Source: Lachnospiraceae bacterium
GTDB taxonomy: Bacteria > Bacillota > Clostridia > Lachnospirales > Lachnospiraceae
Length of the DNA stretch: 64,000 nt
NCBI GenBank assembly: GCA_028696165.1
Contig: JAQVHQ010000011.1
Location: forward strand, 1,866-65,865
Direction: 5' to 3'
The stretch's first letter is position 1. Each line of letters begins with the position of its first letter. Both the position numbers and the translations under genes were made by a program. Below are positions 5,012-54,893 of this stretch, in pieces. The notes under the pieces were generated by a model. That model was not told where the DNA came from, made no database searches, and saw nothing but the letters and a program-made list of their open reading frames with translations.

Positions 5012-5021
5012 GTTCAAAGAA

Positions 5022-5176
5022 ACACGCTAGGGGCGCTTTTAGCTGAGATTGTTAGATAAATTAACAGACCCTCATTACTTGAACCGGATAATACCGGCGT
5101 AAGGAAGCTTATTGATAAAATATCCATTATCAAAAAGTCAAAGCACCCTCCACGTGAAAACGAAGGAGGTTTTTTT
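5022..5176 (+). promoter_or_regulatory. TPP (thi-box) riboswitch with terminator/RBS-sequestering hairpin
   Basis: CTAGGGGCGC...GCTGAGA...ACCCTCATTACTTGAACCGGATAATACCGGCGTAAGGAAGC matches thi-box core; expression platform CCTCC(5147-5151)/GGAGG(5165-5169) plus T7 run directly before ATG 5177. Confidence 0.85.
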
Positions 5177-5842
5177 ATGTTTTCATTTCTTGTTAACGTA
5201 GACGGCGGATTGACCACAGCCGGTTATGCCGTATCCATCATCGCAGCCATCGTGCTGCTGCTTGCTGCATGTTTTCTTGCAGGCAAGGTATCTAATTCTA
5301 AAAAGATGAGTGCCAAACAGATTACTTTCTGTGCGGTTGCCCTGGCACTGGCATTTGTCACTTCTTATCTGAAAATTTTCCCGCTTCCTTTTGGCGGCAG
5401 TGTGACTTTATTCAGCATGCTGTTTATCGTACTGATTGGTTACTGGTATGGGATTAAAGTTGGTATTCTTACCGGTTTTGCTTATGGTATCCTGCAGTTT
5501 GTCCAGGAACCCTATGTACTATCACTGTTCCAGGTATGCTGTGATTACCTTTTGGCATTTGCTGCACTGGGATTATCCGGACTCTTTACTAAGTCTAAAA
5601 ATGGACTTTTGAAAGGATATCTTGTGGCGATTTTTGCCCGCGGGTTCTTCCATGCTTTAGGCGGCTACCTGTACTGGATGTCCTATATGCCGGAGAACTT
5701 CCCAAAATCGCTGACTGCTGTATATCCTATCGTTTACAATTACAGCTATATCCTGGCAGAAGGAGTTATAACCATTATTGTCATCAGTATACCTGCAGTT
5801 AAGAAAGCATTGGAACAGGTAAAACAGACTGCACTTAGTTAA
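5177..5842 (+). CDS. thiT: thiamine transporter, ECF S-component ThiT-like
   Basis: 221-aa polytopic membrane ORF directly behind TPP riboswitch; GGSVTLFSML motif resembles ThiT/YuaJ family. Confidence 0.7.
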   Translation: MFSFLVNVDGGLTTAGYAVSIIAAIVLLLAACFLAGKVSNSKKMSAKQITFCAVALALAFVTSYLKIFPLPFGGSVTLFSMLFIVLIGYWYGIKVGILTGFAYGILQFVQEPYVLSLFQVCCDYLLAFAALGLSGLFTKSKNGLLKGYLVAIFARGFFHALGGYLYWMSYMPENFPKSLTAVYPIVYNYSYILAEGVITIIVISIPAVKKALEQVKQTALS

Positions 5843-10278: not shown

Positions 10279-10426
10279 AATTTCTCCCTTACCAAAACTA
10301 CAATATAACAATAAAATCATATGTAACCATTCTCATGATAAGCTCATACATAATATAAACTTTCATCCAACTTCCACTCTATCTTACAACGAAACAAACG
10401 TTCGCACAAGCATTTTCTAATATTAA

Positions 10427-10795
10427 CCCCCATACTCCCTCAATCCCCGTGCCATTAAAATGGCACGCGCCCTCACTGCCACCCACAATCCAAGCCCCTA
10501 ACCCCCATGCTCCCTCAACCCCCGTGCCATCAAAATGGCACGCGCCCTCACTGCCACCCACAATCCAAGCCCCTAACCTCCATACTCCCTCAACCCCGTG
10601 CCAAAATGGCACGTGCCCTCACTGCCACCCACAATCCAAGCCTCTAACCCCCATACTCCCTCAACCCCCGTGCCATCAAAATGGCACGCGCCCTCACTGC
10701 CACCCACAATCCAAGCCCCTAACCCCCATACCACCTCAACCCCCGTGCCATCAAAATGGCACGTGCCCTCACTGCCACCCACACAACCTCCCTCA
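10427..10795. repeat. 75-bp tandem repeat, 4 full plus 1 partial unit, C-rich on + strand, each with an internal 8-bp hairpin
   Basis: units at 10427, 10502, 10577 (71 bp), 10648, 10723; unit CCCCCATACTCCCTCAACCCCCGTGCCATCAAAATGGCACGCGCCCTCACTGCCACCCACAATCCAAGCCCCTAA. Confidence 0.95.
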
Positions 10796-10828
10796 ACCAC
10801 CACAACCCCGCCTCCAGCCCGAACCCAG

Positions 10829-11107
10829 CCAGCCAGAAAGCCTTACTAAGTAGCAAAACAGGCGGTGTTTATGGATATCAGAATCAGCTGATGAGTATCT
10901 TAGTGCGAAGGCACCCAAGTTTATGGGACGAAATGGTGCTTACAAAGCACCATTTCGAAGGCATCCTGAGGCAGGTATGCATCAGCATACCTGCCGAATA
11001 TGCCTGATTCCCATAAACTTGGGTGCCTTCACACTTAGATACTCACAGCGCAATGACCTATCCATAAACACCGCCTGCTTTGCTACTTAGTAAGGCTTTC
11101 TGGCTGG
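10829..11107. ncRNA. unclassified ornate structured element, family copy 1 of 3 (strand unresolved)
   Basis: 49-bp outer helix with one mismatch, GCTG/CAGC mini-helix, 35-bp second helix, two inner hairpins, invariant GTATGCATCAGCATAC at 10975-10990; same architecture at 21170 and 52907. Confidence 0.55.
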
Positions 11108-11122
11108 CGTCCCTCCCCCCAT

Positions 11123-11794
11123 TCACCGAAACACCATCTCCTCCACCGTAACAAACTCATACCCCCCTTCCCACAAATCCCTCACAATACGCACTGCCGC
11201 CTCCACCGAAGTCTCAAAAGAATCATGCATCAAAATAATATCCCCACCCTCCACCTGTCTCTCCACCCGTTCCACAATCGCCTCCGTATTCTGAAGCTGC
11301 CAATCCATAGAATCCACACTCCAAAAAACAGGCACCATACACACCGTATACTCCAAATCCTCCTTCCACTCCCCATAAGGCGGCCGCACAAAGCAAGGAT
11401 ACTGCCCCGTAATCTCAAAAATCTGATTACCCGTCCGTTCAATCAATTCTACAGCCTTTTCATCGCCCACCGCTTTCATAGAAACATGCTCATAAGTATG
11501 ATTGCCAATCAAATGTCCGTCCGCCTTCATTTGACGAATCACCTCTTCGTGTCCGGTAATATTTTGCCCAAGCAAAAAGAAGCTGGCTTTTACGCCAAGC
11601 TTCTTAAGTTCTGTTAACAATTCACTTGTATAAACACTGGGACCATCATCAAAAGTAAGAGCAACCTGCATATTCTCTCTCGTAACGGTCATTCCATCTG
11701 TCTGTTCCGTCTTCTGTCCGTAATATCCCGACATATAACATATAAATCCAACTAAAAAAGCCAAAAAGGTTTTATACAAAACGCTCCTCTTCAC
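11123..11794 (-). CDS. polysaccharide deacetylase family protein (NodB domain)
   Basis: 223-aa ORF, N-terminal TM, VALTFDDGP, GNHTYEH, LMHD motifs. Confidence 0.85.
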   Translation of the reverse strand: MKRSVLYKTFLAFLVGFICYMSGYYGQKTEQTDGMTVTRENMQVALTFDDGPSVYTSELLTELKKLGVKASFFLLGQNITGHEEVIRQMKADGHLIGNHTYEHVSMKAVGDEKAVELIERTGNQIFEITGQYPCFVRPPYGEWKEDLEYTVCMVPVFWSVDSMDWQLQNTEAIVERVERQVEGGDIILMHDSFETSVEAAVRIVRDLWEGGYEFVTVEEMVFR

Positions 11795-14084: not shown

Positions 14085-14122
14085 GGGGTGATTTTAAAAA
14101 TATTTTTTTTCCAAGGCGGACG

Positions 14123-14303
14123 CAGCGGTTCCATACGGGCGAAAGTTGCGGAACGTGGGCAACGCCAGGGTGAACTATCTGTTAACTTCGACTAAGACGC
14201 TCGGGAACGCCCTCGCGCCTAAGTCTTCGTAAACAGAGGATTTCACCCTGGCTAAGAGCGCCCACTGAATTGTTCCGCGACTTTCGCCCGTATGGAACCG
14301 CTG
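14123..14303. other. 181-nt nested imperfect palindrome (possible structured RNA, + sense favoured)
   Basis: outer arms CAGCGGTTCCATACGGGCGAAAGTTGCGGAAC / GTTCCGCGACTTTCGCCCGTATGGAACCGCTG (32 bp, one T.G), inner arms GTGGGC..GCCAGGGTGAA / TTCACCCTGGC..GCCCAC. Confidence 0.5.
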
Positions 14304-14413
14304 CTGATTTTGGTTGGGACTTTATTTTTTTCTTTCCTTTGTGGTTATATTTAACGGTTATATTTATTGCTTATTTCCTTATTGCTCTTATATTTTACAA
14401 TTTTTCGTTATAT

Positions 14414-19689: not shown

Positions 19690-20760
19690 ATGAACTTCCC
19701 ATCCACCACTACGTATCATATTGGATATTTTTTCTTCTACATATGTACTTTTCTCTGGCCTTTACGTATCAAATTAGACAAACTTGCTTCTGTGCACGTA
19801 CTCCCCACCGGCTTTTACGTATCATATTAGACAAACTTGCTTCTGGATACGTACTCCCCGCCGACTTTTACGTATCATTTCGGCATTTCTTACTTCTGAA
19901 TACGTACTTGCATCCTGAATTTACGTGTCATTTCGGGCTTTTTTGCTTCTAGATACGTACCTGCAGCCTGAATTTACGTATCATTTCGGACTTTCTTGCT
20001 TCTGGATACGTACCTGCAGCCTGTATTTACGTGTCATTTCGGACTTTCTTGCTTCTGGATACGTACCTGCAGCCTGTATTTACGTGTCATTTCGGACTTT
20101 CTTGCTTCTGGATACGTACCTGCAGCCTGTATTCACGTGTCATTTCGGACTTTTTTGCTTCTGGATACGTACCTGCATCCTGAATTTACGTATCATTTCG
20201 GACTTTCTTGCTTCTGGATACGTACCTGCAGCCTGAATTTACGTGTCATTTCGGACTTTCTTGCTTCTGGATACGTACCTGCAGCCTGTATTTACGTGTC
20301 ATTTCGGACTTTCTTGCTTCTGGATACGTACCTGCAGCCTGTATTCACGTGTCATTTCGGACTTTTTTGCTTCTGGATACGTACCTGCAGCCTGTATTTA
20401 CGTGTCATTTCGGACTTTCTTGCTTCTGGATACGTACCCGCACCCTGAATTTACGTGTCATTTCGGACTTTCTTGCTTCTGGATACGTACCTGCAGCCTG
20501 TATTCACGTGTCATTTCGGACTTTTTTGCTTCTGGATACGTACCTGCAGCCTGAATTTACGTATCATTTCTATATTTTTTGCTTCTGGATACGTACTCCC
20601 ATCCTGTTTATACGTATCATTTCGACATTTTTCATTTCTGGATACGTACTCCCATCCTGTTTATACGTATCATTTCGACATTTTTCATTTCTGGATACGT
20701 ACCTGCATCCTGAATTTACGTATCATTTCGGACTTTCTTGCTTTTGGATACGTACTCCCA
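19690..20760. repeat. 53-bp satellite, about 20 units, 18 well-phased units from 19796 to 20749
   Basis: unit ACGTACCTGCAGCCTG[T/A]ATT[T/C]ACGT[G/A]TCATTTCGGACTTT[C/T]TTGCTTCTGGAT; degenerate units at both edges. Confidence 0.97.
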
Positions 20761-20937
20761 TTCAATATTCACCTATCAAACAGCCAACTTCCTTATATGT
20801 ACATGCAAGAACAATCTTTTTTCATAGCAATAGCTATACAAACCTTCCAATTCCCACATTCACCCACAAACTCAGCTTTTAACCATCCTACATCCACAGG
20901 CCCCGTGCCCACGGCACGCGATTTTCCACCACAACCT

Positions 20938-21140
20938 AATCCCCTCGCACAACACAAATCCCCCTCTCAACACAATCCTCTTCACAACACAAATCCCCCT
21001 TCACACCGCAATCCCCTTCACACCGCAATCCCCTTCACACCGCAATCCCCTTCACACCGCAATCCCCTTCACACCGCAATCCCCTTCACAACACAATCCC
21101 CTTCACACCGCAATCCCCTTCACAACATATATCCCTCCCC
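20938..21140. repeat. 18-bp C-rich tandem repeat, about 10 units (CACACCGCAATCCCCTTC)
   Basis: five perfect units 21002-21091 flanked by degenerate ones; GGGG every 18 nt on the minus strand. Confidence 0.9.
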
Positions 21141-21169
21141 ACCACCACAGCCAACACCGTCCATCCCAT

Positions 21170-21460
21170 CCGTAAGACTTTACAGCCGGCCAAAAGGATG
21201 GGGAAACTGCTGCTTTTCCCGGTCATAAAATGCGCTGATGAACTTCTTAGGGCGAAAGAGCCGACTACACAGGAATGAAAGGTGTTTACCAAAACACCTT
21301 TCAAAGGCACCCTGAAGGTTGTATGCATCAGCATACAGCCTGAATGTGCCTGGCTTCCTGCGTAGTCGGCTCTTTCACCCTTAGAAGTTCACAGCAAATG
21401 TTCCTGACCGGAAAAAGCAGCAGCTTCCCCATCCTTTTGGCCGGCTGTAAAGTCTTACGG
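21170..21460. ncRNA. unclassified ornate structured element, family copy 2 of 3
   Basis: 35+21-bp outer helix, GCTG/CAGC, 35-bp P2 with T.T and C.A mismatches, hairpin loop TTACCAAA, invariant GTATGCATCAGCATAC at 21321-21336. Confidence 0.55.
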
Positions 21461-21490
21461 ATGAACACACCCCACCTAACCTTCAACCCA

Positions 21491-22042
21491 CTACTTTCTC
21501 AAATAAGCCTCGCGCCCCTCTTCATAAAGATTCCTACCCTCGCAGTCAATAATAACCACCAAAGGCATATCCTCCACATAAAGCTTCCGCAAAGCCTCCG
21601 CACCCAAATCCTCATAAGCAATCAACTCACACTTCTTAATGCACTTTGCCAACAAAGCTCCCGCTCCGCCAATTGCACCAAAATAAACACCACTATACTT
21701 CTTCATGGCATCCACCACTTCCGGCAATCTTGCTCCTTTTCCAATCATTCCTCGGGCACCAACAGACATCATCGTCGGTGCATAAGCATCCATACGCCCG
21801 CTGGTAGTAGGTCCAGCTGATCCAATCACCTGACCCGGTTTTGCAGGTGTCGGTCCCACATAATAAATCGTAGCATCCGCAGGATCAAAAGGAAGCTTCT
21901 CCCCTCTCTCCAATGCCTCACACATCCTCTTGTGCCCTGCATCTCGAGAAGTATAAATAGTCCCTGTCAGATAAACACTATCCCCTGCATGCAGTGTCTT
22001 TGCCAACTCTTCCGTCAATGGAAGCTGTATATGTCTCTCCAT
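21491..22042 (-). CDS. class-I (Fe-S) fumarate hydratase / L(+)-tartrate dehydratase family, beta subunit
   Basis: 183-aa ORF, GTIYTSRDAGHKR, GPTTSGRMD, GKG motifs of FumA C-terminal domain proteins. Confidence 0.85.
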   Translation of the reverse strand: MERHIQLPLTEELAKTLHAGDSVYLTGTIYTSRDAGHKRMCEALERGEKLPFDPADATIYYVGPTPAKPGQVIGSAGPTTSGRMDAYAPTMMSVGARGMIGKGARLPEVVDAMKKYSGVYFGAIGGAGALLAKCIKKCELIAYEDLGAEALRKLYVEDMPLVVIIDCEGRNLYEEGREAYLRK

Positions 22043-27718: not shown

Positions 27719-29389
27719 CTATACATACAAATATGCAATCGCCTCATAAGGACGCAGCATTTTGTCTTCCATTGTTCCATCATTTTCATAATTGGAAATA
27801 TACAGTTCAGACTTCTTAACTTCAATTTCCTTTGGAAGAGTAAACTTCTGCTCTTCTTTGGTAAAATTCAATACCACAAGCATCTTCTGTTCTCCCAACT
27901 GTCGTGTGTATACATAAAGATCTGGATTTTCTTTATCATATTCACAAAATGAACCATATACCGCCACATCATATTTATGACGCTGCTGAATCAATTTCTG
28001 CATATAATGGAAAATCGAGTCCGAATCAGCCCTGGATTCTGCTGCATTAATCTCGCGATAATTTTCATTCATCTTAAGCCAAGGTTTGCCGGTGGTAAAT
28101 CCACCGTTAGCACTGTCATCCCACTGCATTGGAGTTCTGGCATTATCTCTGCCAATATATTCAATTGCTTTCATCAATTCATCCGGATTAGCATTGCCGT
28201 TGACTACTCTGTCATCCCAGGCGTTTCGTATCTGGATGTCCTGATAATCTTCAATGGAATCATACTTCACATTTGTCATGCCCAGTTCTTCACCCTGATA
28301 GATGTAAGGCGTACCCTGCATAGTCATAATCATGGTATAAAGCATTTTAGCACTTTCCTTGCGATACTTTTTGTCATCACCCCAACGGGATACACTTCTT
28401 GGCTGGTCATGATTGGCAAGATAGAGACTGTTCCATGCCAATCCTTCCAATTCTGTCTGCCATTTACTCATAATCTTCTTAAATGCCACCAGGTCAAATG
28501 GTCTCAGATTGAATTTATCTCCGTTAATATACTCCATAGTAACATGTTCAAATTGAAAAACCATGCTCATCTCACTGCCATCTGCAGCTGCATATTTCTT
28601 TGCTTCTTCTACGGTCACTGCAGAAGTCTCTCCAACAGTCATCATGTCTTTATATTTTGACATAACCTTCTGGTTCATCTCATTGAAAAATTCATGAATT
28701 CTTGGTCCATTTTGATAATGTTCTTCACCTATGTTTGCTCGGTCTGTCTTTCCGTCCGGAAGTCCTGGTGTCTTAGAATACATACTTGCCACATCAAGTC
28801 TGAATCCATCTACACCTTTCTGCATCCAGAAGTCCATGATATCATATACTTCATCTCTTACTACCGGATTTTCCCAGTTTAAGTCTGGTTGTTTCTTAGA
28901 GAAGATATGCAGGTAATACTGGTCTGTATTCTCATCATATTCCCATGCACTTCCGGAGAATCTTGAGGTCCAGTTGTTTGGCTCTTTACCATCTTTTCCA
29001 TCGCTCCACATATAGTAGTCACGATATGGGTTATCTTTTGATTTTCTGCTCTCTACAAACCATTTGTGTTCATCTGACGAATGATTCACAACTAAGTCTA
29101 CAATCAGGCGAATCCCACGTTTGTGCATTTCTTCCTGCATCTCATCAAAATCTTCCATGGTTCCAAATTCTTCCATGATGCCTCTGTAATCAGAGATATC
29201 ATAACCATTGTCGTCATTTGGCGATTTGTAATGAGGAGACAGCCATACTGCGTCAATTCCTAATTCCTGTAAATAATCCAGACGGGAAGTAATTCCCTTT
29301 AAATCTCCGATTCCATCACCGTTGGAATCCTGAAAACTCCTTGGATATATTTGATATACTACCGCTTCTTTCCACCATTTTTTGTCCAT
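27719..29389 (-). CDS. GH13 oligo-1,6-glucosidase / alpha-glucosidase (paralog 1)
   Basis: 556-aa ORF; WWKEAVVYQIYPRSF, DLVVNHSSDEH, GFRLDVA, VGE, NHDQPR conserved GH13 regions. Confidence 0.9.
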   Translation of the reverse strand: MDKKWWKEAVVYQIYPRSFQDSNGDGIGDLKGITSRLDYLQELGIDAVWLSPHYKSPNDDNGYDISDYRGIMEEFGTMEDFDEMQEEMHKRGIRLIVDLVVNHSSDEHKWFVESRKSKDNPYRDYYMWSDGKDGKEPNNWTSRFSGSAWEYDENTDQYYLHIFSKKQPDLNWENPVVRDEVYDIMDFWMQKGVDGFRLDVASMYSKTPGLPDGKTDRANIGEEHYQNGPRIHEFFNEMNQKVMSKYKDMMTVGETSAVTVEEAKKYAAADGSEMSMVFQFEHVTMEYINGDKFNLRPFDLVAFKKIMSKWQTELEGLAWNSLYLANHDQPRSVSRWGDDKKYRKESAKMLYTMIMTMQGTPYIYQGEELGMTNVKYDSIEDYQDIQIRNAWDDRVVNGNANPDELMKAIEYIGRDNARTPMQWDDSANGGFTTGKPWLKMNENYREINAAESRADSDSIFHYMQKLIQQRHKYDVAVYGSFCEYDKENPDLYVYTRQLGEQKMLVVLNFTKEEQKFTLPKEIEVKKSELYISNYENDGTMEDKMLRPYEAIAYLYV

Positions 29390-29472
29390 GATTTTTCCTT
29401 TCTAATCGCACAATATTTTATTCAATCACACCCCGGTGCATTATACCCTCAGTTCATCACACATACTAATAA

Positions 29473-29625
29473 CATACAGATACCGATAGCATACACATAC
29501 CGATAGCATACAGATACCGATAGCATACACATACCAATAGCATACAGATACCAATAGCATACACATACCAATAGCATACACATACCAATAGCATACACAT
29601 ACCAATAGCATACACATACTAATAT
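29473..29625. repeat. 17-bp tandem repeat x9 (CATACA[G/C]ATACC[G/A]ATAG) between the GH13 paralogs
   Basis: units phased from 29473; the first six alternate CAG/CAC giving a 34-bp higher-order period. Confidence 0.9.
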
Positions 29626-29734: not shown

Positions 29735-31405
29735 TTATTCATACAAATATACAACAGCTTCATAAGGCCGAAGACATTTATCCCCTATTTTCCCATCATT
29801 TTCATAGTTCGATATGTATAATTGTGATTTATTATATTCTATTTCTTTTGGTAAATGAAATTCTTTTTCTTCACCTGTAAAGTTCAATACAACAAGCATT
29901 TTCTGACCATCAAGCTCACGTGTATACACATAGAGCGATTCATTTTCCTCATCATACTCGTGAAAAGAGCCATATACAGCCACTGCGTTTTGCTTTCTCA
30001 GTTTTATCAATTTCTGCATATAATGGAAAATAGAATCTGGATTATCCAGTGATTCTTTTGCATTAATCTCTGTATAATTCCTGTTCATCTTCAGCCAGGG
30101 AGTTCCTGTCGTAAATCCACCATTCTTACTGTCATCCCACTGCATTGGTGTCCTGGCATTATCCCGTGAGATGACGCTGAGTGTATCCAGCATTTCTTCC
30201 GGCGACACCATACCAGTTAATACGCGTTCTTTCCAGATAGTCCGGACATTTATATCCTGATAGTCTTCAATGGATGTATACCCTGCATTGGTCATTCCCA
30301 GTTCCTCTCCCTGATAAATATAGGGTGTTCCCTGCATGGTCATTATCATCGTATACAGCATTTTAGCACTTTCATTTCGATACTTCTTGTCATCGCCCCA
30401 TCGGGACACACTTCTTGGCTGGTCATGATTTGCCAGATACAGGCTGTTCCATGCCAGACCGTCTAATTCAGTCTGCCACTTACTCATGACTTTTTTAAAT
30501 TCGCTCATCTTAAATGGTTTCAAGCTGTATCTGTCACCGTTTTTATATTCAAGATTAACATGCTCGAACTGAAAAATCATTCCCAATTCCTGCCTGTCTG
30601 TTCCAGAATACTTTTTGGCATCCTCTACAGTTACCGCTGCAATCTCACCAACTGTCATAATGTCATCATATTGAGATAACACTTTTTCATTCATCTCTTT
30701 AAAATATTCATGAATTCTTGGTCCATGGAGATAATATTCCGCTCCCACGTTAACATTATTCAAATCTCCATCAGGCAGTCCCTCGGTTTTAGAATAAGAA
30801 CCTGCGGCGTCTAATCGAAATCCATCCACACCTTTTTCGATCCAGAACTTCATCATATCATAGATTTCATCTCTGACTTTAGGATTTTCCCAATTCAAAT
30901 CAGGCTGTTTTGGAGAATATAAATGCAGATAGTATTGATTTGTCTCCCCATTATAATCCCACGCTTTTCCAGAAAATCTGGACACCCAGTTGTTCGGCTC
31001 TTTTCCATCCTTGCCATCACGCCATATATAGTAATCTCTATATGGATTATCTTTGGATTTCTTGCTTTCCACAAACCACTCATGCTCATCTGAAGTATGA
31101 TTCACCACTAAATCAATGACCAGATGAATACCACGTTTACGCATTTCCTGCTGCATCTCGTCAAAATCTTCCATCGTACCAAATTCGTCCATGATATCCC
31201 GGTAATCCGAGATATCATAGCCATTATCATCATTTGGCGACTTAAAATGCGGAGACAACCACACAGTATCAATACCTAATTCCTGCAAATAATCTAATCT
31301 GGAAGTAATTCCCTTCAAATCTCCAATTCCATCTCCGTTGGAATCCTGAAAACTTCTTGGATATATTTGATATACAACTGCTTCTTTCCACCATTTTCTG
31401 TCCAT
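29735..31405 (-). CDS. GH13 oligo-1,6-glucosidase / alpha-glucosidase (paralog 2)
   Basis: 556-aa ORF colinear with paralog 1, same length, long identical peptide stretches. Confidence 0.9.
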   Translation of the reverse strand: MDRKWWKEAVVYQIYPRSFQDSNGDGIGDLKGITSRLDYLQELGIDTVWLSPHFKSPNDDNGYDISDYRDIMDEFGTMEDFDEMQQEMRKRGIHLVIDLVVNHTSDEHEWFVESKKSKDNPYRDYYIWRDGKDGKEPNNWVSRFSGKAWDYNGETNQYYLHLYSPKQPDLNWENPKVRDEIYDMMKFWIEKGVDGFRLDAAGSYSKTEGLPDGDLNNVNVGAEYYLHGPRIHEYFKEMNEKVLSQYDDIMTVGEIAAVTVEDAKKYSGTDRQELGMIFQFEHVNLEYKNGDRYSLKPFKMSEFKKVMSKWQTELDGLAWNSLYLANHDQPRSVSRWGDDKKYRNESAKMLYTMIMTMQGTPYIYQGEELGMTNAGYTSIEDYQDINVRTIWKERVLTGMVSPEEMLDTLSVISRDNARTPMQWDDSKNGGFTTGTPWLKMNRNYTEINAKESLDNPDSIFHYMQKLIKLRKQNAVAVYGSFHEYDEENESLYVYTRELDGQKMLVVLNFTGEEKEFHLPKEIEYNKSQLYISNYENDGKIGDKCLRPYEAVVYLYE

Positions 31406-52605: not shown

Positions 52606-52752
52606 GCAGGAGAAGAGACGGGGGCGGGGCAGAAAACGCGTCGTCCTCCTCAGCTGCCGAAACCCCGGGCATGCGGCTCCCGCCTTTGCCCGGCGGCGAT
52701 CTTCGGACTCCTTTGGCTTGACTTTCTGCCCCGCCCCCGTCTCTTCTCCTGC
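52606..52752. repeat. GC-rich 30-bp perfect inverted repeat with 87-nt GC-rich spacer
   Basis: GCAGGAGAAGAGACGGGGGCGGGGCAGAAA (52606-52635) / TTTCTGCCCCGCCCCCGTCTCTTCTCCTGC (52723-52752); spacer holds the nested hairpin CCGGGC...GCCCGG. Confidence 0.9.
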
Positions 52753-52906
52753 TGTTTGTTGGCGATAACTGGGAAAGGCGAGATAACATTTGTTCCCTGG
52801 TGGGGATGCCCTTTGGGTGGTTGCGGGCGTGACTGTGTGGATTGTCTGTTTTTTATATTCGTGATATGTTGTGTTGATAAATATATGCGTACTTAACAAT
52901 AAGCAG

Positions 52907-53193
52907 CCGTAGCACGAAGAACACCCATCTGACTGCGGAAAAGTCGAGTTTTTATGGATATGGGATGAGCTGATATACATCTTGATGCGAAAGAACCGGT
53001 TACAGCCGGGCGACGGGTATTTACCAAAATACCCGTCGAGGACGCTCTGAGGCGTGTATGCATCAGCATACACACCGAATGCGGCCGCTCCCGGCTGTAA
53101 CCGGTTCTTTCACATCTAGATGTATACAGCAAAATCCCCCTATCCATAAAAACCGACTTTCCCGCAGTCAGATGGGTGTTCTTCGTGTTACGG
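52907..53193. ncRNA. unclassified ornate structured element, family copy 3 of 3
   Basis: about 57-bp outer helix, GCTG/CAGC, 36-bp P2 with T.T and C.A mismatches, hairpin loop TTACCAAA, invariant GTATGCATCAGCATAC at 53056-53071. Confidence 0.55.
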
Positions 53194-53198
53194 CGTCC

Positions 53199-54893
53199 TC
53201 ACTCCACCTTCTCCAATCGCCCCACAACAATCTTCCTAAGCATCTCCACCTTCTCTTCAGCCTCTGCTGCATTCTTCCCCCTGGTATAAATATAAATCTT
53301 AATCTTTGGTTCCGTTCCCGAAGGTCTGACTGCAAACCAGCTTCCATCTTCTAATAGAAACTTCAGTACATTTGAAGGCCCTATATCTTCATATCCGTTA
53401 ATATAATCAATTTCCTTTGCCACCTTAATCCCATCATATTCCATTAATGGATTCTCGCGATAGGAAATCATCATACGTTCAATTCTCTTAGCCCCCTCTA
53501 TTCCATCATAAATCAGTGAAATCTGAGCTTCTTTGTAGTATCCATATTGCCTGTAAATATCTTCCAGCACATCTAACAAACTTTTCCCCATCTTTTTATA
53601 ATATGCCGCAGCTTCACACACCAGCATAGAAGTACTTACTCCATCTTTATCTCTCACAGCTTCACTGGGAGCATAACCGATACTCTCTTCATAGCCAAAT
53701 AAATAACGATATCCTTCCTGTTCCATAACCGGAATTTTTCCACAGATATTTTTAAATCCTGTCAGGGACTCATACATCTTTACTCCATGCTGTTTTGCTA
53801 TTTCTTTTCCCAAATCTCCCGTTACGATAGATTTTACCATTGCTCCATTATCAGGAAGACTTCCCTTGGTCAAAAGTCCTTCTAATATATAGTTAATCAG
53901 CAGTACCCCTGCCTGATTTCCATTAATCGGAACATAGTCTCCCTGCTTATTTCTTACTTCCATAGCAAAACGATCGCTGTCTGGATCGGTTGCAATAAGA
54001 ATATCTGCCGATTTTTCCCCGCCTAATTTTTCAGCATATTTGAATGCTTTTGTATCTTCAGGATTCGGATATCCTACCGTAGGAAAGTCTCCGTCCGGGT
54101 GCTCTTGTTCAGGAACCACAGATACATTAGCAAAGCCTCTTCTTTTTAATATCTTTTGCACAGGTATACTTCCAGCTCCATTTAATGGTGTATAGACAAT
54201 AGACACTGTCTTATCAAGATCTTCTTCTCTTGCCATAGCCAGTCCTTCCACCATTTTCAAATAAGCTTCATCCATTTCTTCGCCTAAGTACTCCAACAGA
54301 TTTTTCTCTGCTGCGCTGTCCAATGATATGCTTTTGATATCCTCAAACATATCGACCTGTGTGATTTCTTCTGTCATCCCATCTGCGATATACTCGGCAA
54401 CCTGTGCGCCGTCTTCCCAATAGACTTTGTACCCGTTATATTCTTTGGGATTATGGCTTGCCGTAATATTAATTCCCGCTGATGCACCTGTTTTTCTTAT
54501 GGCAAATGATAGTTCCGGTGTTGGTCTAAGGGATGGAAACAGGTAGACTTTTATGTTATTTCCAGCAAGAATCTGTGCGGCATACTCTGCAAATTCCCGG
54601 GAATGATGGCGGCTGTCGTATGCTATTACTACGCCTTTATGCATACAGTCTTCGCCCTGCTTTTTCATATAGTCAGCAATGCCCTGGGTAGCTTTTCCAA
54701 CGGTATACCTGTTCATCCGGTTAATTCCAGCTCCCATTTTTCCTCTAAGGCCAGCCGTGCCAAAGGATAAGGGTTTATAGAATCTCTCTTTAATCTCCTG
54801 CTCATCCTGCTTGATGGCAAGTAATTCTTTCTTTGTATCAGCATCCAAATTCTTGTTGTTCAGCCATTCTTCATATATCTTTACTGCATCCAT
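53199..54893 (-). CDS. phosphoglucomutase / phosphomannomutase family protein
   Basis: 564-aa ORF; active-site TASHNPKEYNGYK, metal loop ATDPDSDR, GYEESIG. Confidence 0.92.
   Translation of the reverse strand: MDAVKIYEEWLNNKNLDADTKKELLAIKQDEQEIKERFYKPLSFGTAGLRGKMGAGINRMNRYTVGKATQGIADYMKKQGEDCMHKGVVIAYDSRHHSREFAEYAAQILAGNNIKVYLFPSLRPTPELSFAIRKTGASAGINITASHNPKEYNGYKVYWEDGAQVAEYIADGMTEEITQVDMFEDIKSISLDSAAEKNLLEYLGEEMDEAYLKMVEGLAMAREEDLDKTVSIVYTPLNGAGSIPVQKILKRRGFANVSVVPEQEHPDGDFPTVGYPNPEDTKAFKYAEKLGGEKSADILIATDPDSDRFAMEVRNKQGDYVPINGNQAGVLLINYILEGLLTKGSLPDNGAMVKSIVTGDLGKEIAKQHGVKMYESLTGFKNICGKIPVMEQEGYRYLFGYEESIGYAPSEAVRDKDGVSTSMLVCEAAAYYKKMGKSLLDVLEDIYRQYGYYKEAQISLIYDGIEGAKRIERMMISYRENPLMEYDGIKVAKEIDYINGYEDIGPSNVLKFLLEDGSWFAVRPSGTEPKIKIYIYTRGKNAAEAEEKVEMLRKIVVGRLEKVE

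Follow-up and report, generated by a model that had tools for sequence, protein, structure and literature searches.

REP sequences, REPINs and BIMEs are dispersed extragenic palindromes whose hairpins, marked by a mismatch or bulge, are read by a single-copy enzyme acting in trans, RAYT (TnpA-REP, of the HUH-Y1 type). REPs measure 20-40 nt and REPINs about 100 nt; within a genome their copies are alike in sequence and have a conserved 5' tetranucleotide of the GTAG type. We analysed a 64,000-nt stretch from a Lachnospiraceae bacterium (GCA_028696165.1, contig JAQVHQ010000011.1, positions 1,866 to 65,865 of the forward strand; hereafter the window, to which plain coordinates refer), in which three large hairpins, here called ornate elements W1, W2 and W3, had been noticed. 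The three loci are copies of an undescribed dispersed repeat that has been seen so far only in a few uncultured Clostridia. The family is a superfamily of non-coding, quasi-palindromic DNA elements, and it is defined by structure rather than by sequence. In the way they may work, the elements appear most like attC sites and REP/REPIN elements.

Like REP and REPIN elements, the ornate elements are hairpin-folding extragenic palindromes at gene ends; they appear non-autonomous, long-lived and restricted to a lineage, and they may have side effects on transcription termination and mRNA stability, as REPs do. They differ in being 147-424 nt long (unit lengths over all element types), in having a branched apex and stems that are unrelated between copies (identity 0.59, against 0.56 when shuffled), and in ending in CA^GC..GC^GTCC (^ marks the junction between element and flank) instead of a GTAG-like tetranucleotide. 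No RAYT was found among the neighbours in the window and the fetched loci.

The likeness to attC sites is one of mechanism and not of membership. The fold is conserved while the stem sequence is free, unpaired bases are conserved (a T.T mismatch in 13 of 15 copies, with invariant loops), the terminal structure is variable and sometimes branched, and the site lies just past a stop codon in a fixed polarity. The RYYYAAC/GTTRRRY cores of attC are absent, however, and the base of the outer helix reads GC(C)..(G)GC with CA and GTCC flanks. The conserved part is the apex together with a mid-stem module, not the base alone; the elements are three to five times longer; and copies lie 10-30 kb apart among housekeeping genes, with inverted pairs, rather than in cassette arrays. 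No integrase gene (intI) was found among the scanned open reading frames (ORFs) of the window.

Other described families were compared in the same way. The PATEs of the IS200/IS605 group share asymmetric ends with no terminal inverted repeats or duplication, recognition of a mismatched hairpin, extensive folding and a conserved short flank on one side (GGAC^ here, TTAC^ in IS608). Of the 15 ornate copies, 13 have GGAC on the side nearest the gene, as do three elements of other interior (X1-X3, below), but the other side was conserved as well. PATEs have two subterminal hairpins at a fixed short distance from the cleavage sites and sequence-conserved ends, whereas here the ends pair with each other in a single global hairpin and are separated from the conserved modules by a variable 70-190 nt. 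In contrast to DDE-type miniature inverted-repeat transposable elements (MITEs), the two tails, CCAACAAACA and GTCC(C/G)CC, are neither inverted nor direct repeats of one another. BOX, RUP, ERIC, Correia/NEMIS and RPE are likewise modular, non-coding, co-transcribed intergenic hairpin repeats of 100-300 nt, but they are known by sequence identity and mostly have terminal inverted repeats and duplications; in the ornate family only the fold, loops, mismatches and ends are retained, with massive covariation. Compared with intrinsic terminators, the stems are ten times the usual length, and the tail follows a consensus, UGUUUGUUGG, that is poorly represented in W1 and W2. With respect to non-coding RNAs (ncRNAs) linked to retrons or other reverse transcriptases, no reverse transcriptase gene was adjacent to the elements, whose neighbours are housekeeping genes. 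Because the elements lack the defining features of attC sites, REP/REPIN, IS200/IS605 elements, MITEs and retrons, they were filed under the broad heading of extragenic palindromic repeats, outside any named family.

Structure of the elements

The original prediction placed one common fold at three loci of the window, and each of them did fold alike, with z-scores of -23 to -29. The fold is a near-perfect hairpin made of an outer helix P1, a 4-bp helix, a helix P2 and a three-way junction with hairpins P3 and P4. With helices extended to the last pair, the copies span 281-297 nt. The features are as follows, all on the + strand.

10828..11108, +: W1 ornate element, full hairpin from GC to GC (folds; termini CA^GC and GC^GTCC)
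10828..10880, +: W1 P1 5' arm, partner 11054-11108 (repeat-finder pair I2, 50 nt; DNA-parameter fold)
11054..11108, +: W1 P1 3' arm (repeat finder, DNA-parameter fold)
10887..10890, +: W1 4-bp helix GCTG, partner CAGC 11046-11049 (DNA-parameter fold)
10892..10928, +: W1 P2 5' arm including the CTTAG module, partner 11009-11045 (repeat-finder pair I4)
10901/11036 (T.T) and 10906/11031 (C.A), +: W1 P2 mismatches (mismatch census)
10929..10957, +: W1 hairpin P3, loop CTTACAAAG (folds)
10959..11005, +: W1 hairpin P4 with internal loop CCUGA/GAAU and invariant tip (folds, loop-column census)
10975..10990, +: P4-tip 16-mer GTATGCATCAGCATAC (exact match; a 17-mer variant in other copies)
10818..10827, +: W1 left tail (family consensus CCAACAAACA, invariant CA at its end; 13-copy end alignment)
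11109..11122, +: W1 right tail GTCCCTCCCCCCAT (family consensus GTCC(C/G)CC; 13-copy end alignment)
21167..21463, +: W2 ornate element, non-canonical termini (fold; repeat-finder pair I1)
52906..53194, +: W3 ornate element (fold)

Minimum free energies with RNA parameters were -206.9 kcal/mol for W1, -212.5 for W2 and -207.8 for W3, against shuffle means of about -73 to -80; the respective z-scores were -29, -27 and -23, and none of 200 shuffles equalled them. With DNA parameters, W1 gave -132 kcal/mol on the + strand (z = -26) and -135 kcal/mol on the - strand (z = -28). A repeat finder, which involves no folding model, returned the same arm pairs (I1-I6). P1 of W1 comprises 50 bp with 98% complementarity, and the P2 arms of all three copies are 37 nt long and 92-95% complementary.

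Helix sequences had been described as replaced between copies, and the measured identities agree: the mean pairwise value for P1 arms was 0.59, versus 0.56 for shuffled partners, and that for P2b 0.38-0.40. The P4 tip and the P4 internal loop were 100% identical between the window copies. The 16-mer GTATGCATCAGCATAC of the P4 tip occurred exactly three times in the window, once in each copy at an offset of 146-151 nt, where 0.65 matches would be expected by chance even with up to three mismatches allowed. Its supposed invariance thus holds within the window; in newly found copies elsewhere, however, the tip is the 17-nt GTATGCATCAAGCATAC, a variant with an ATCAA loop, and the 16-mer is therefore not strictly invariant.

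Two explanations of the long stems were tried and rejected. Inverted duplication of the flanks does not account for P1, given that its outermost pairs are conserved along with both flanks and that variation extends to the internal helices. The stems could not be traced to nearby or target DNA either, as there was no significant match elsewhere in the window.

Covariation

The ornate set comprises 15 full copies from three genomes (the three in the window and 12 others), and the same core was found across these three distant lineages. The core of all 15 copies, from the 4-bp helix through its partner, was aligned for covariation. RNAalifold gave a structure of 68 pairs, 50 of which showed double compensatory changes. 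On this structure 95.3% of cells paired, as opposed to 74.7% in column shuffles (0 of 500 as high), and sliding the partners by 1-3 columns lowered pairing to 33-48%. Changes on both sides were observed in 223 cells, versus 62 expected. Even P3, which is otherwise conserved in the copies from a metagenome-assembled genome (MAG), had double changes in 7 of its 11 pairs, and its three central pairs showed eight Watson-Crick combinations. The conserved fold with replaced helices that had been proposed is strongly supported by these data, and it is beyond doubt that the fold is maintained across the family.

The wider alignment also altered several statements made from the window alone. The 4-bp helix GCTG/CAGC, described as invariant, is not: covarying versions (ATTG/CAAT and ACTG/CAGT) occurred among the 15 copies, the pair states being GC in 13 and AU in 2 copies, and CG in 14 and UA in 1. 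The two P2 mismatches were said to be always present. T.T is found in all three window copies but in 13 of 15 across the family, and C.A, present in W1 at 10906/11031, in only 9 of 15; of the other six copies, five have a Watson-Crick pair at that place and one has G.T. The columns of the P4 loop were invariant in 15 of 15 copies.

The manner in which pairing is maintained was examined from the mismatches. Selection on an RNA normally leaves numerous G.U intermediates on one strand but few A.C. Here, one-sided changes (G-C to G-U) were rare relative to double changes. Among 12 folded copies, there were 45 G.U on the + strand versus 55 on the - strand. The window copies had 2 G.T versus 9 A.C, while the MAG copies had about 50 G.T versus about 26 A.C whichever way the gene ran; assignment of a functional strand from G.U counts was dropped, as window and MAG copies disagree. 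The scarcity of one-sided changes, together with the similar numbers of G.T and A.C, suggests that the hairpin is kept up at the level of DNA.

In quasi-palindrome template switching (Ripley; Lovett laboratory), one arm is copied onto the other, which yields seemingly compensatory changes and mirrored insertions or deletions in a single step. The pairing pattern is what such arm-to-arm copying of DNA would produce, and the rarity of one-sided changes and the perfect long arms resemble it. P1 ranges from about 45 to about 120 bp in length and is nearly free of bulges, which means that insertions and deletions have been mirrored in both arms. Template switching is, however, a mutational mechanism and not an element family, and it leaves the conserved mismatches, loops, junction and ends unexplained. 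In a comparison of close strains, the element halves had 4 differences in 437 nt versus about 0.3-0.4% in the flanks, a variation too sparse to be decisive.

Ends and other element types

Read on the + strand, the unit is 5'-CCAACAAACA^GC-long hairpin-GC^GTCC(C/G)CC-3'. With all 13 canonical copies anchored at the base of P1, the left junction, CA^GC, reached 2.0 bits at positions -2 and -1, and the right junction, GC^GTCC, likewise reached 2.0 bits at its junction positions (the right-junction score was taken after the boundary of copy L003 had been shifted by one base). Conservation drops quickly beyond the junctions. The left tail has a longer form, CTTTTCCCTCCCC..CACCACCAACA, and both tails are very poor in G (8-10% G). 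Read outward from the gene, the tail consensus is the U/G-rich UGUUUGUUGG.

Other element types were found by scanning for hairpins with CA^GC..GC^GTCC ends. Four have interiors different from that of the ornate elements.

52606..52752, - strand: X1, 147 nt, different interior, same ends, 30-bp perfect P1 (repeat-finder pair I3, end scan)
14122..14304, - strand: X2, 183 nt, second interior type, same ends, CTTAG/CTTAG T.T, GAA/GAA loops (end scan)
L003 7104-7287: X3, a relative of X2 (end scan)
L002 6916-7032: fourth element of different interior, related to X2 and cut by the end of the locus (end scan)

X1 lies tail to tail with W3 across a 153-nt spacer and has its GTCC side towards the promoter of an SBP gene; X2 lies between divergent promoters, upstream of the infC-rpmI-rplT operon. 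X2 and X3 have a common architecture of their own, in which the CTTAG/CTTAG T.T mismatch stands beside a GCGAA-like motif, as in ornate P2. Since this T.T mismatch is conserved across element types, it is meaningful only in a folded single strand.

Two features of the flanks were observed besides. Upstream of W2, at 21146-21166, there is a canonical-looking left tail, CCACCACAGCCA, followed by ACACC and GTCC. This left tail closely resembles that of the copy in the other Lachnospiraceae genome (L004). It is followed immediately by a right tail in the string CCACCACA^GCCAACACC^GTCCATCC, which could be a footprint or a collapsed element. On the gene-sense strand of W1, G-tracts surround the base of the hairpin (GGGGGGAGGGAC, hairpin, UGGGUUCGGG; window 11109-11122 and 10800-10827), and a quadruplex could form there from the four G3 runs. 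G-runs of this kind are seen beside many of the copies, though not beside every one; W3 has none.

Distribution

Beyond the window, 12 more full copies, one cut copy and one internally deleted copy were found in two other Clostridia MAGs. A scan of species-representative genomes gave 10 loci, nine in the MAG 'Clostridia bacterium INTA.CYC.029' and one in a Lachnospiraceae MAG; the upstream motif CTGARG was present in 10 of 10, though absent from the search pattern. Three further full copies, one cut copy and one fragment came from searching the fetched loci with a profile, which in the window returned exactly the three ornate copies. The Lachnospiraceae copy (L004, 65-488) begins 10 nt beyond the stop of a ClpB gene and is 424 nt long, with a P1 of about 120 bp and a 4-bp helix that now reads ATTG/CAAT. 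The internally deleted copy (L001, about 640-765) retains both ends, the outer P1 pairs and the 3' half of P2.

The window organism is 99.95-100% identical to GCA_028692155.1. Its phosphoglucomutase is at most 64% identical to any entry of the protein collection outside its own species; the lineage is poorly sampled. In close strains, short-read assemblies (Logan, JGI) stop exactly at the hairpin centres (L052, L063-L065, L067-L069); since contigs break there, the elements are under-represented in metagenome collections and easily missed.

Database searches

The elements had been called unclassified, and this is borne out by Rfam. At gathering scores, Rfam 15 matched only a TPP riboswitch (5019-5122) in the whole window and no ornate element; no family, whether riboswitch, 6S, tmRNA, RNase P, SRP, ribozyme, HEARO/omega RNA or group II intron, reached the gathering threshold on these elements. 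In E-value mode, W1 gave only sub-threshold chance matches, e.g. to miRNA precursors, the best being MIR9555 with 36.5 bits against a gathering score of 119. Four related loci gave no Rfam match. Hammerhead, loop E and retron readings of the conserved loops were dropped on inspection. A k-turn has a 3-nt bulge and then tandem sheared G.A pairs, its C-stem coming straight after A1n; on an alignment reading, the P4 loop CCUGA/GAAU permits tandem G.A beside the inner stem, but two extra nucleotides (AU) stand before the outer stem.

BLAST of the core against plasmids and phages gave no match. In viral contigs, the 16-mer had 29 chance matches, all without the flanking motifs, and the 17-mer had 7 matches, which were not inspected; when both flanking motifs were required, a search that also covers the 17-mer tip, there were zero. 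A metagenome scan with CTGARG-N7-GCATCAGC-N7-CYGAAT (tip stem free) gave 11 chance matches and 0 hairpins, with a pattern that cannot match the GCATCAAGC tip; the genome scan and the metagenome pattern are both blind to the 17-nt variant with the ATCAA loop. Translations of the conserved core (spurious ORFs) matched nothing in the protein collection at E <= 10. The 16-mer was found in no paper, and keyword searches of the literature returned no description of such elements.

Genomic placement

The elements follow a polarity rule in which the GTCC side points towards the adjacent gene. At least 12 begin 5-47 nt past a stop codon. W1 lies 15 nt beyond the stop of a polysaccharide deacetylase gene (11123-11794, -), W2 lies 28 nt beyond that of fumarase beta (21491-22042, -), and W3 lies 5 nt beyond that of phosphoglucomutase (53199-54893, -). 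Another five (X1, X2, L005, L007, L009a) are found 45-80 nt before a promoter or in the gap between two divergent ones. The neighbours are unrelated housekeeping genes, among them those for polysaccharide deacetylase, fumarase, phosphoglucomutase, PhoU, P-type ATPase, ClpB, PFOR, transketolase, galactokinase and melibiase.

Six loci carry two elements (X1/W3, X3/L003, L009b/a, L010b/a, the ornate and X-type elements of L002, and L001a with the internally deleted copy). The CA tails face each other in 6 of 6, across a spacer of about 90-440 nt. Repeat-rich spacers adjoin the CA-tail side of two window copies, and it is uncertain whether they belong to the element.

10424..10783, no strand: repeat-rich spacer on the CA-tail side of W1, 75-nt unit x 4.9
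19836..21135, no strand: repeat-rich spacer on the CA-tail side of W2, 53-nt unit x 17 and 17-nt unit x 10

Each 75-nt unit beside W1 contains a CGTGCC..GGCACG hairpin, CGTGCCATCAAAATGGCACG, preceded by CCCC, and a similar hairpin, CGTGCCCACGGCACG, occurs beside W2 at 20904-20930. The repeats beside W2 (53 nt, 17 copies, 19836-20755; 17 nt, about 10 copies, 20930-21135) lie in a non-coding stretch of 1.6 kb. Their units are all alike, so this is no CRISPR array.

Other genes of the window end in ordinary AT-rich intrinsic terminators. The G-rich flanks and the GC content of about 50% are distinct from AT-rich intergenic DNA, and because the other genes have ordinary terminators, these flanks must belong with the elements. 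A relative with 64% phosphoglucomutase identity, which is not syntenic, has a plain terminator after this gene.

Discussion

The elements behave as an old dispersed DNA repeat, because sharp, invariant, asymmetric ends are shared by unrelated interiors, there is no link to gene function and no theme among the neighbours, copies occur as inverted pairs and one has decayed by internal deletion, sites lie both after stops and upstream of promoters, and compensation is almost purely Watson-Crick. The original prediction had set a selected fold against a MITE. Its first part stands, in that the fold is conserved and this is not a recently spread, sequence-identical MITE, but the choice between the two was a false one. 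The fall-back it offered, a conserved role at the level of single-stranded DNA, fits best.

For the same reasons, and because the mismatch module is shared between element types, we tentatively regard the family as old, non-autonomous mobile elements that are defined by structure and read as single-stranded DNA hairpins by an enzyme not found so far; our confidence in this falls somewhat short of even. Such elements, mobile or formerly mobile, would be processed as a folded single strand. An enzyme encoded in trans, perhaps of the HUH/Y1 or integrase kind, would recognise three features, namely the fork-like ends, the CTTAG module with its mismatch, and the invariant domain at the apex, and as it would read only these, the stem sequence would be free to drift. 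The arms would be kept complementary mainly by intramolecular templated correction, i.e. quasi-palindrome template switching, with selection confined to loops, mismatches and junctions. A transcript leaving the gene would meet a huge hairpin and then the U/G-rich tail UGUUUGUUGG, and the elements are therefore probably terminators or insulators in a secondary role.

If this reading is true, the family adds new shape-recognised genetic elements to attC sites and REPINs, and the three-way junction, the fork-like ends and the conserved T.T mismatch would make them unusually rich in features. It would also point to an undiscovered enzyme acting on single-stranded DNA in a poorly sampled branch of Clostridia and provide a natural data set for arm-to-arm correction of long quasi-palindromes.

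Several findings weigh against mobility of this kind. By Pfam, no transposase, recombinase or reverse transcriptase was found in 30 window ORFs (none of them from about 35-51 kb or beyond 56 kb) and 20 flanking proteins of the MAG loci, and there was no HUH gene among these scanned neighbours. No empty site and no presence/absence polymorphism was seen, and the only close strains (99-100% identity) have the same copies; a search for empty sites as CAGTCC in a G-poor context returned only coincidences in coding regions. There is no target-site duplication, and nothing points to recent movement, given that near-identical copies are absent. The distance between the ends and the conserved modules varies from 70 to 190 nt, which does not fit the way in which IS200/IS605 transposases find their cleavage sites. 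The case for template-switch correction comes entirely from mismatch patterns. The gene-proximal polarity, 5-47 nt past stops, is equally compatible with a role at RNA 3' ends. It is also typically in RNA that one meets purine-rich tandem G.A loops (here UGA/GAA, twice) and a tandem U.G/G.U such as the one conserved in P4 of the MAG copies.

A wider form of the DNA reading is that the elements represent a new class of mobile or boundary DNA set by its fold, in which an enzyme reading single-stranded DNA would use the fork-like end, the T.T module and the branched apex; we consider this doubtful. Stems of 50-120 bp would drift freely and be re-copied arm to arm, and the elements would settle at transcription-unit borders in one polarity, often in inverted pairs with repeat-rich spacers between them. 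They would then amount to a new recombination or insulation system in Clostridia, similar in principle to attC/IntI or REPIN/RAYT but different from them in chemistry and architecture.

The strongest rival is an RNA element at gene 3' ends, which we hold to be possible though on the unlikely side. The hairpin with UGUUUGUUGG would stop or insulate transcription and block 3' exonucleases, and the apical domain and internal loops would bind a protein or direct processing, e.g. by RNase III or a k-turn-binding protein of the L7Ae type. The position past stop codons of at least 12 elements, in one polarity and with no other terminator there, is as expected of such an RNA, as are the U/G-rich outward tail, the ordinary terminator that takes the same place in the relative with 64% phosphoglucomutase identity, and the very strong covariation. 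The window copies also favour the gene-sense strand (G.U 0-1 when folded as +, versus 4-6 when folded as -), on which the recurrent C.A reads U.G and alternates with C-G, A-U and U-A. The MAG copies reverse this preference, however, with more G.T than A.C on the + strand for any gene direction (about 50 versus about 26), and the RNA-like tandem G.A and P4 tandem G.U stand on the strand antisense to the adjacent gene. Moreover, X1, X2, L005, L007 and L009a lie upstream of promoters or between divergent ones and run against the direction of local transcription, several copies (e.g. W1, UGGGUUCGGG) have a weak U-tract, and a terminator needs no stem of 50-120 bp, no three-way junction and no invariant ends. 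Were it true, these elements would form a new class of RNA, and a very large one, acting at 3' ends or as insulators.

It is improbable that the elements are free-standing ncRNA genes on the + strand, with CA^GC and GC^GUCC as processing sites, P1 as a clamp and the apical junction as the core. The sharp ends would suit such genes, as would the loops of sheared-G.A type (CUGA/GAAU in P4; UGA/GAA at the 4-bp helix in most MAG copies) and the U.G/G.U of P4, which favour the + strand, and a weak promoter-like sequence, TTGATA-18-AATAAG, is found just upstream of W3. The left flanks, however, are G-poor and C/A-rich with no conserved promoter, and a hairpin followed by GUCCCC is no terminator. Three copies in 64 kb extrapolate to about a hundred divergent copies per genome, unlike known trans-acting RNAs; perfect duplexes of 50-120 bp would be RNase III substrates; and there is no Rfam relative.

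We give equally little credence to the idea that the hairpins are the two inverted ends of larger islands, GGAC^GC-hairpin..repeat-rich spacer..hairpin-GC^GTCC, with single elements having lost one end. In all six pairs the arrangement is tail to tail, and the GTCC ends point outward regardless of the neighbour; GGAC and GTCC, which form the outer flanks, are each other's inverted complement; and the spacers are rich in repeats and unlike normal intergenic DNA in composition. Paired hairpins are nevertheless unrelated in stem sequence and often of different interior type, the spacers have no common sequence except the small CGTGCC hairpin in two of them, many elements are single, and no known transposition chemistry yields such ends.

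Short-read contigs that break exactly at hairpin centres might point to an assembly artefact or to chance palindromes, but this explanation is excluded for practical purposes. W2, X2 and most of W1 recur without any difference in sequence in another assembly of this organism (L062, L066); an asymmetric core is common to the 15 full copies, which come from three MAGs made by different groups; and 0 of 200 and 0 of 500 shuffle controls reached the observed values.

Additional observations

The TPP riboswitch on the + strand at 5019-5122 was matched over its full length with 68 bits and lies upstream of a thiamine transporter gene of the YuaJ type (5177-5842). A 17-nt tandem repeat of 9.8 copies occurs at 29459-29624, between paralogous alpha-amylase genes at 27719-29389 and 29735-31405.

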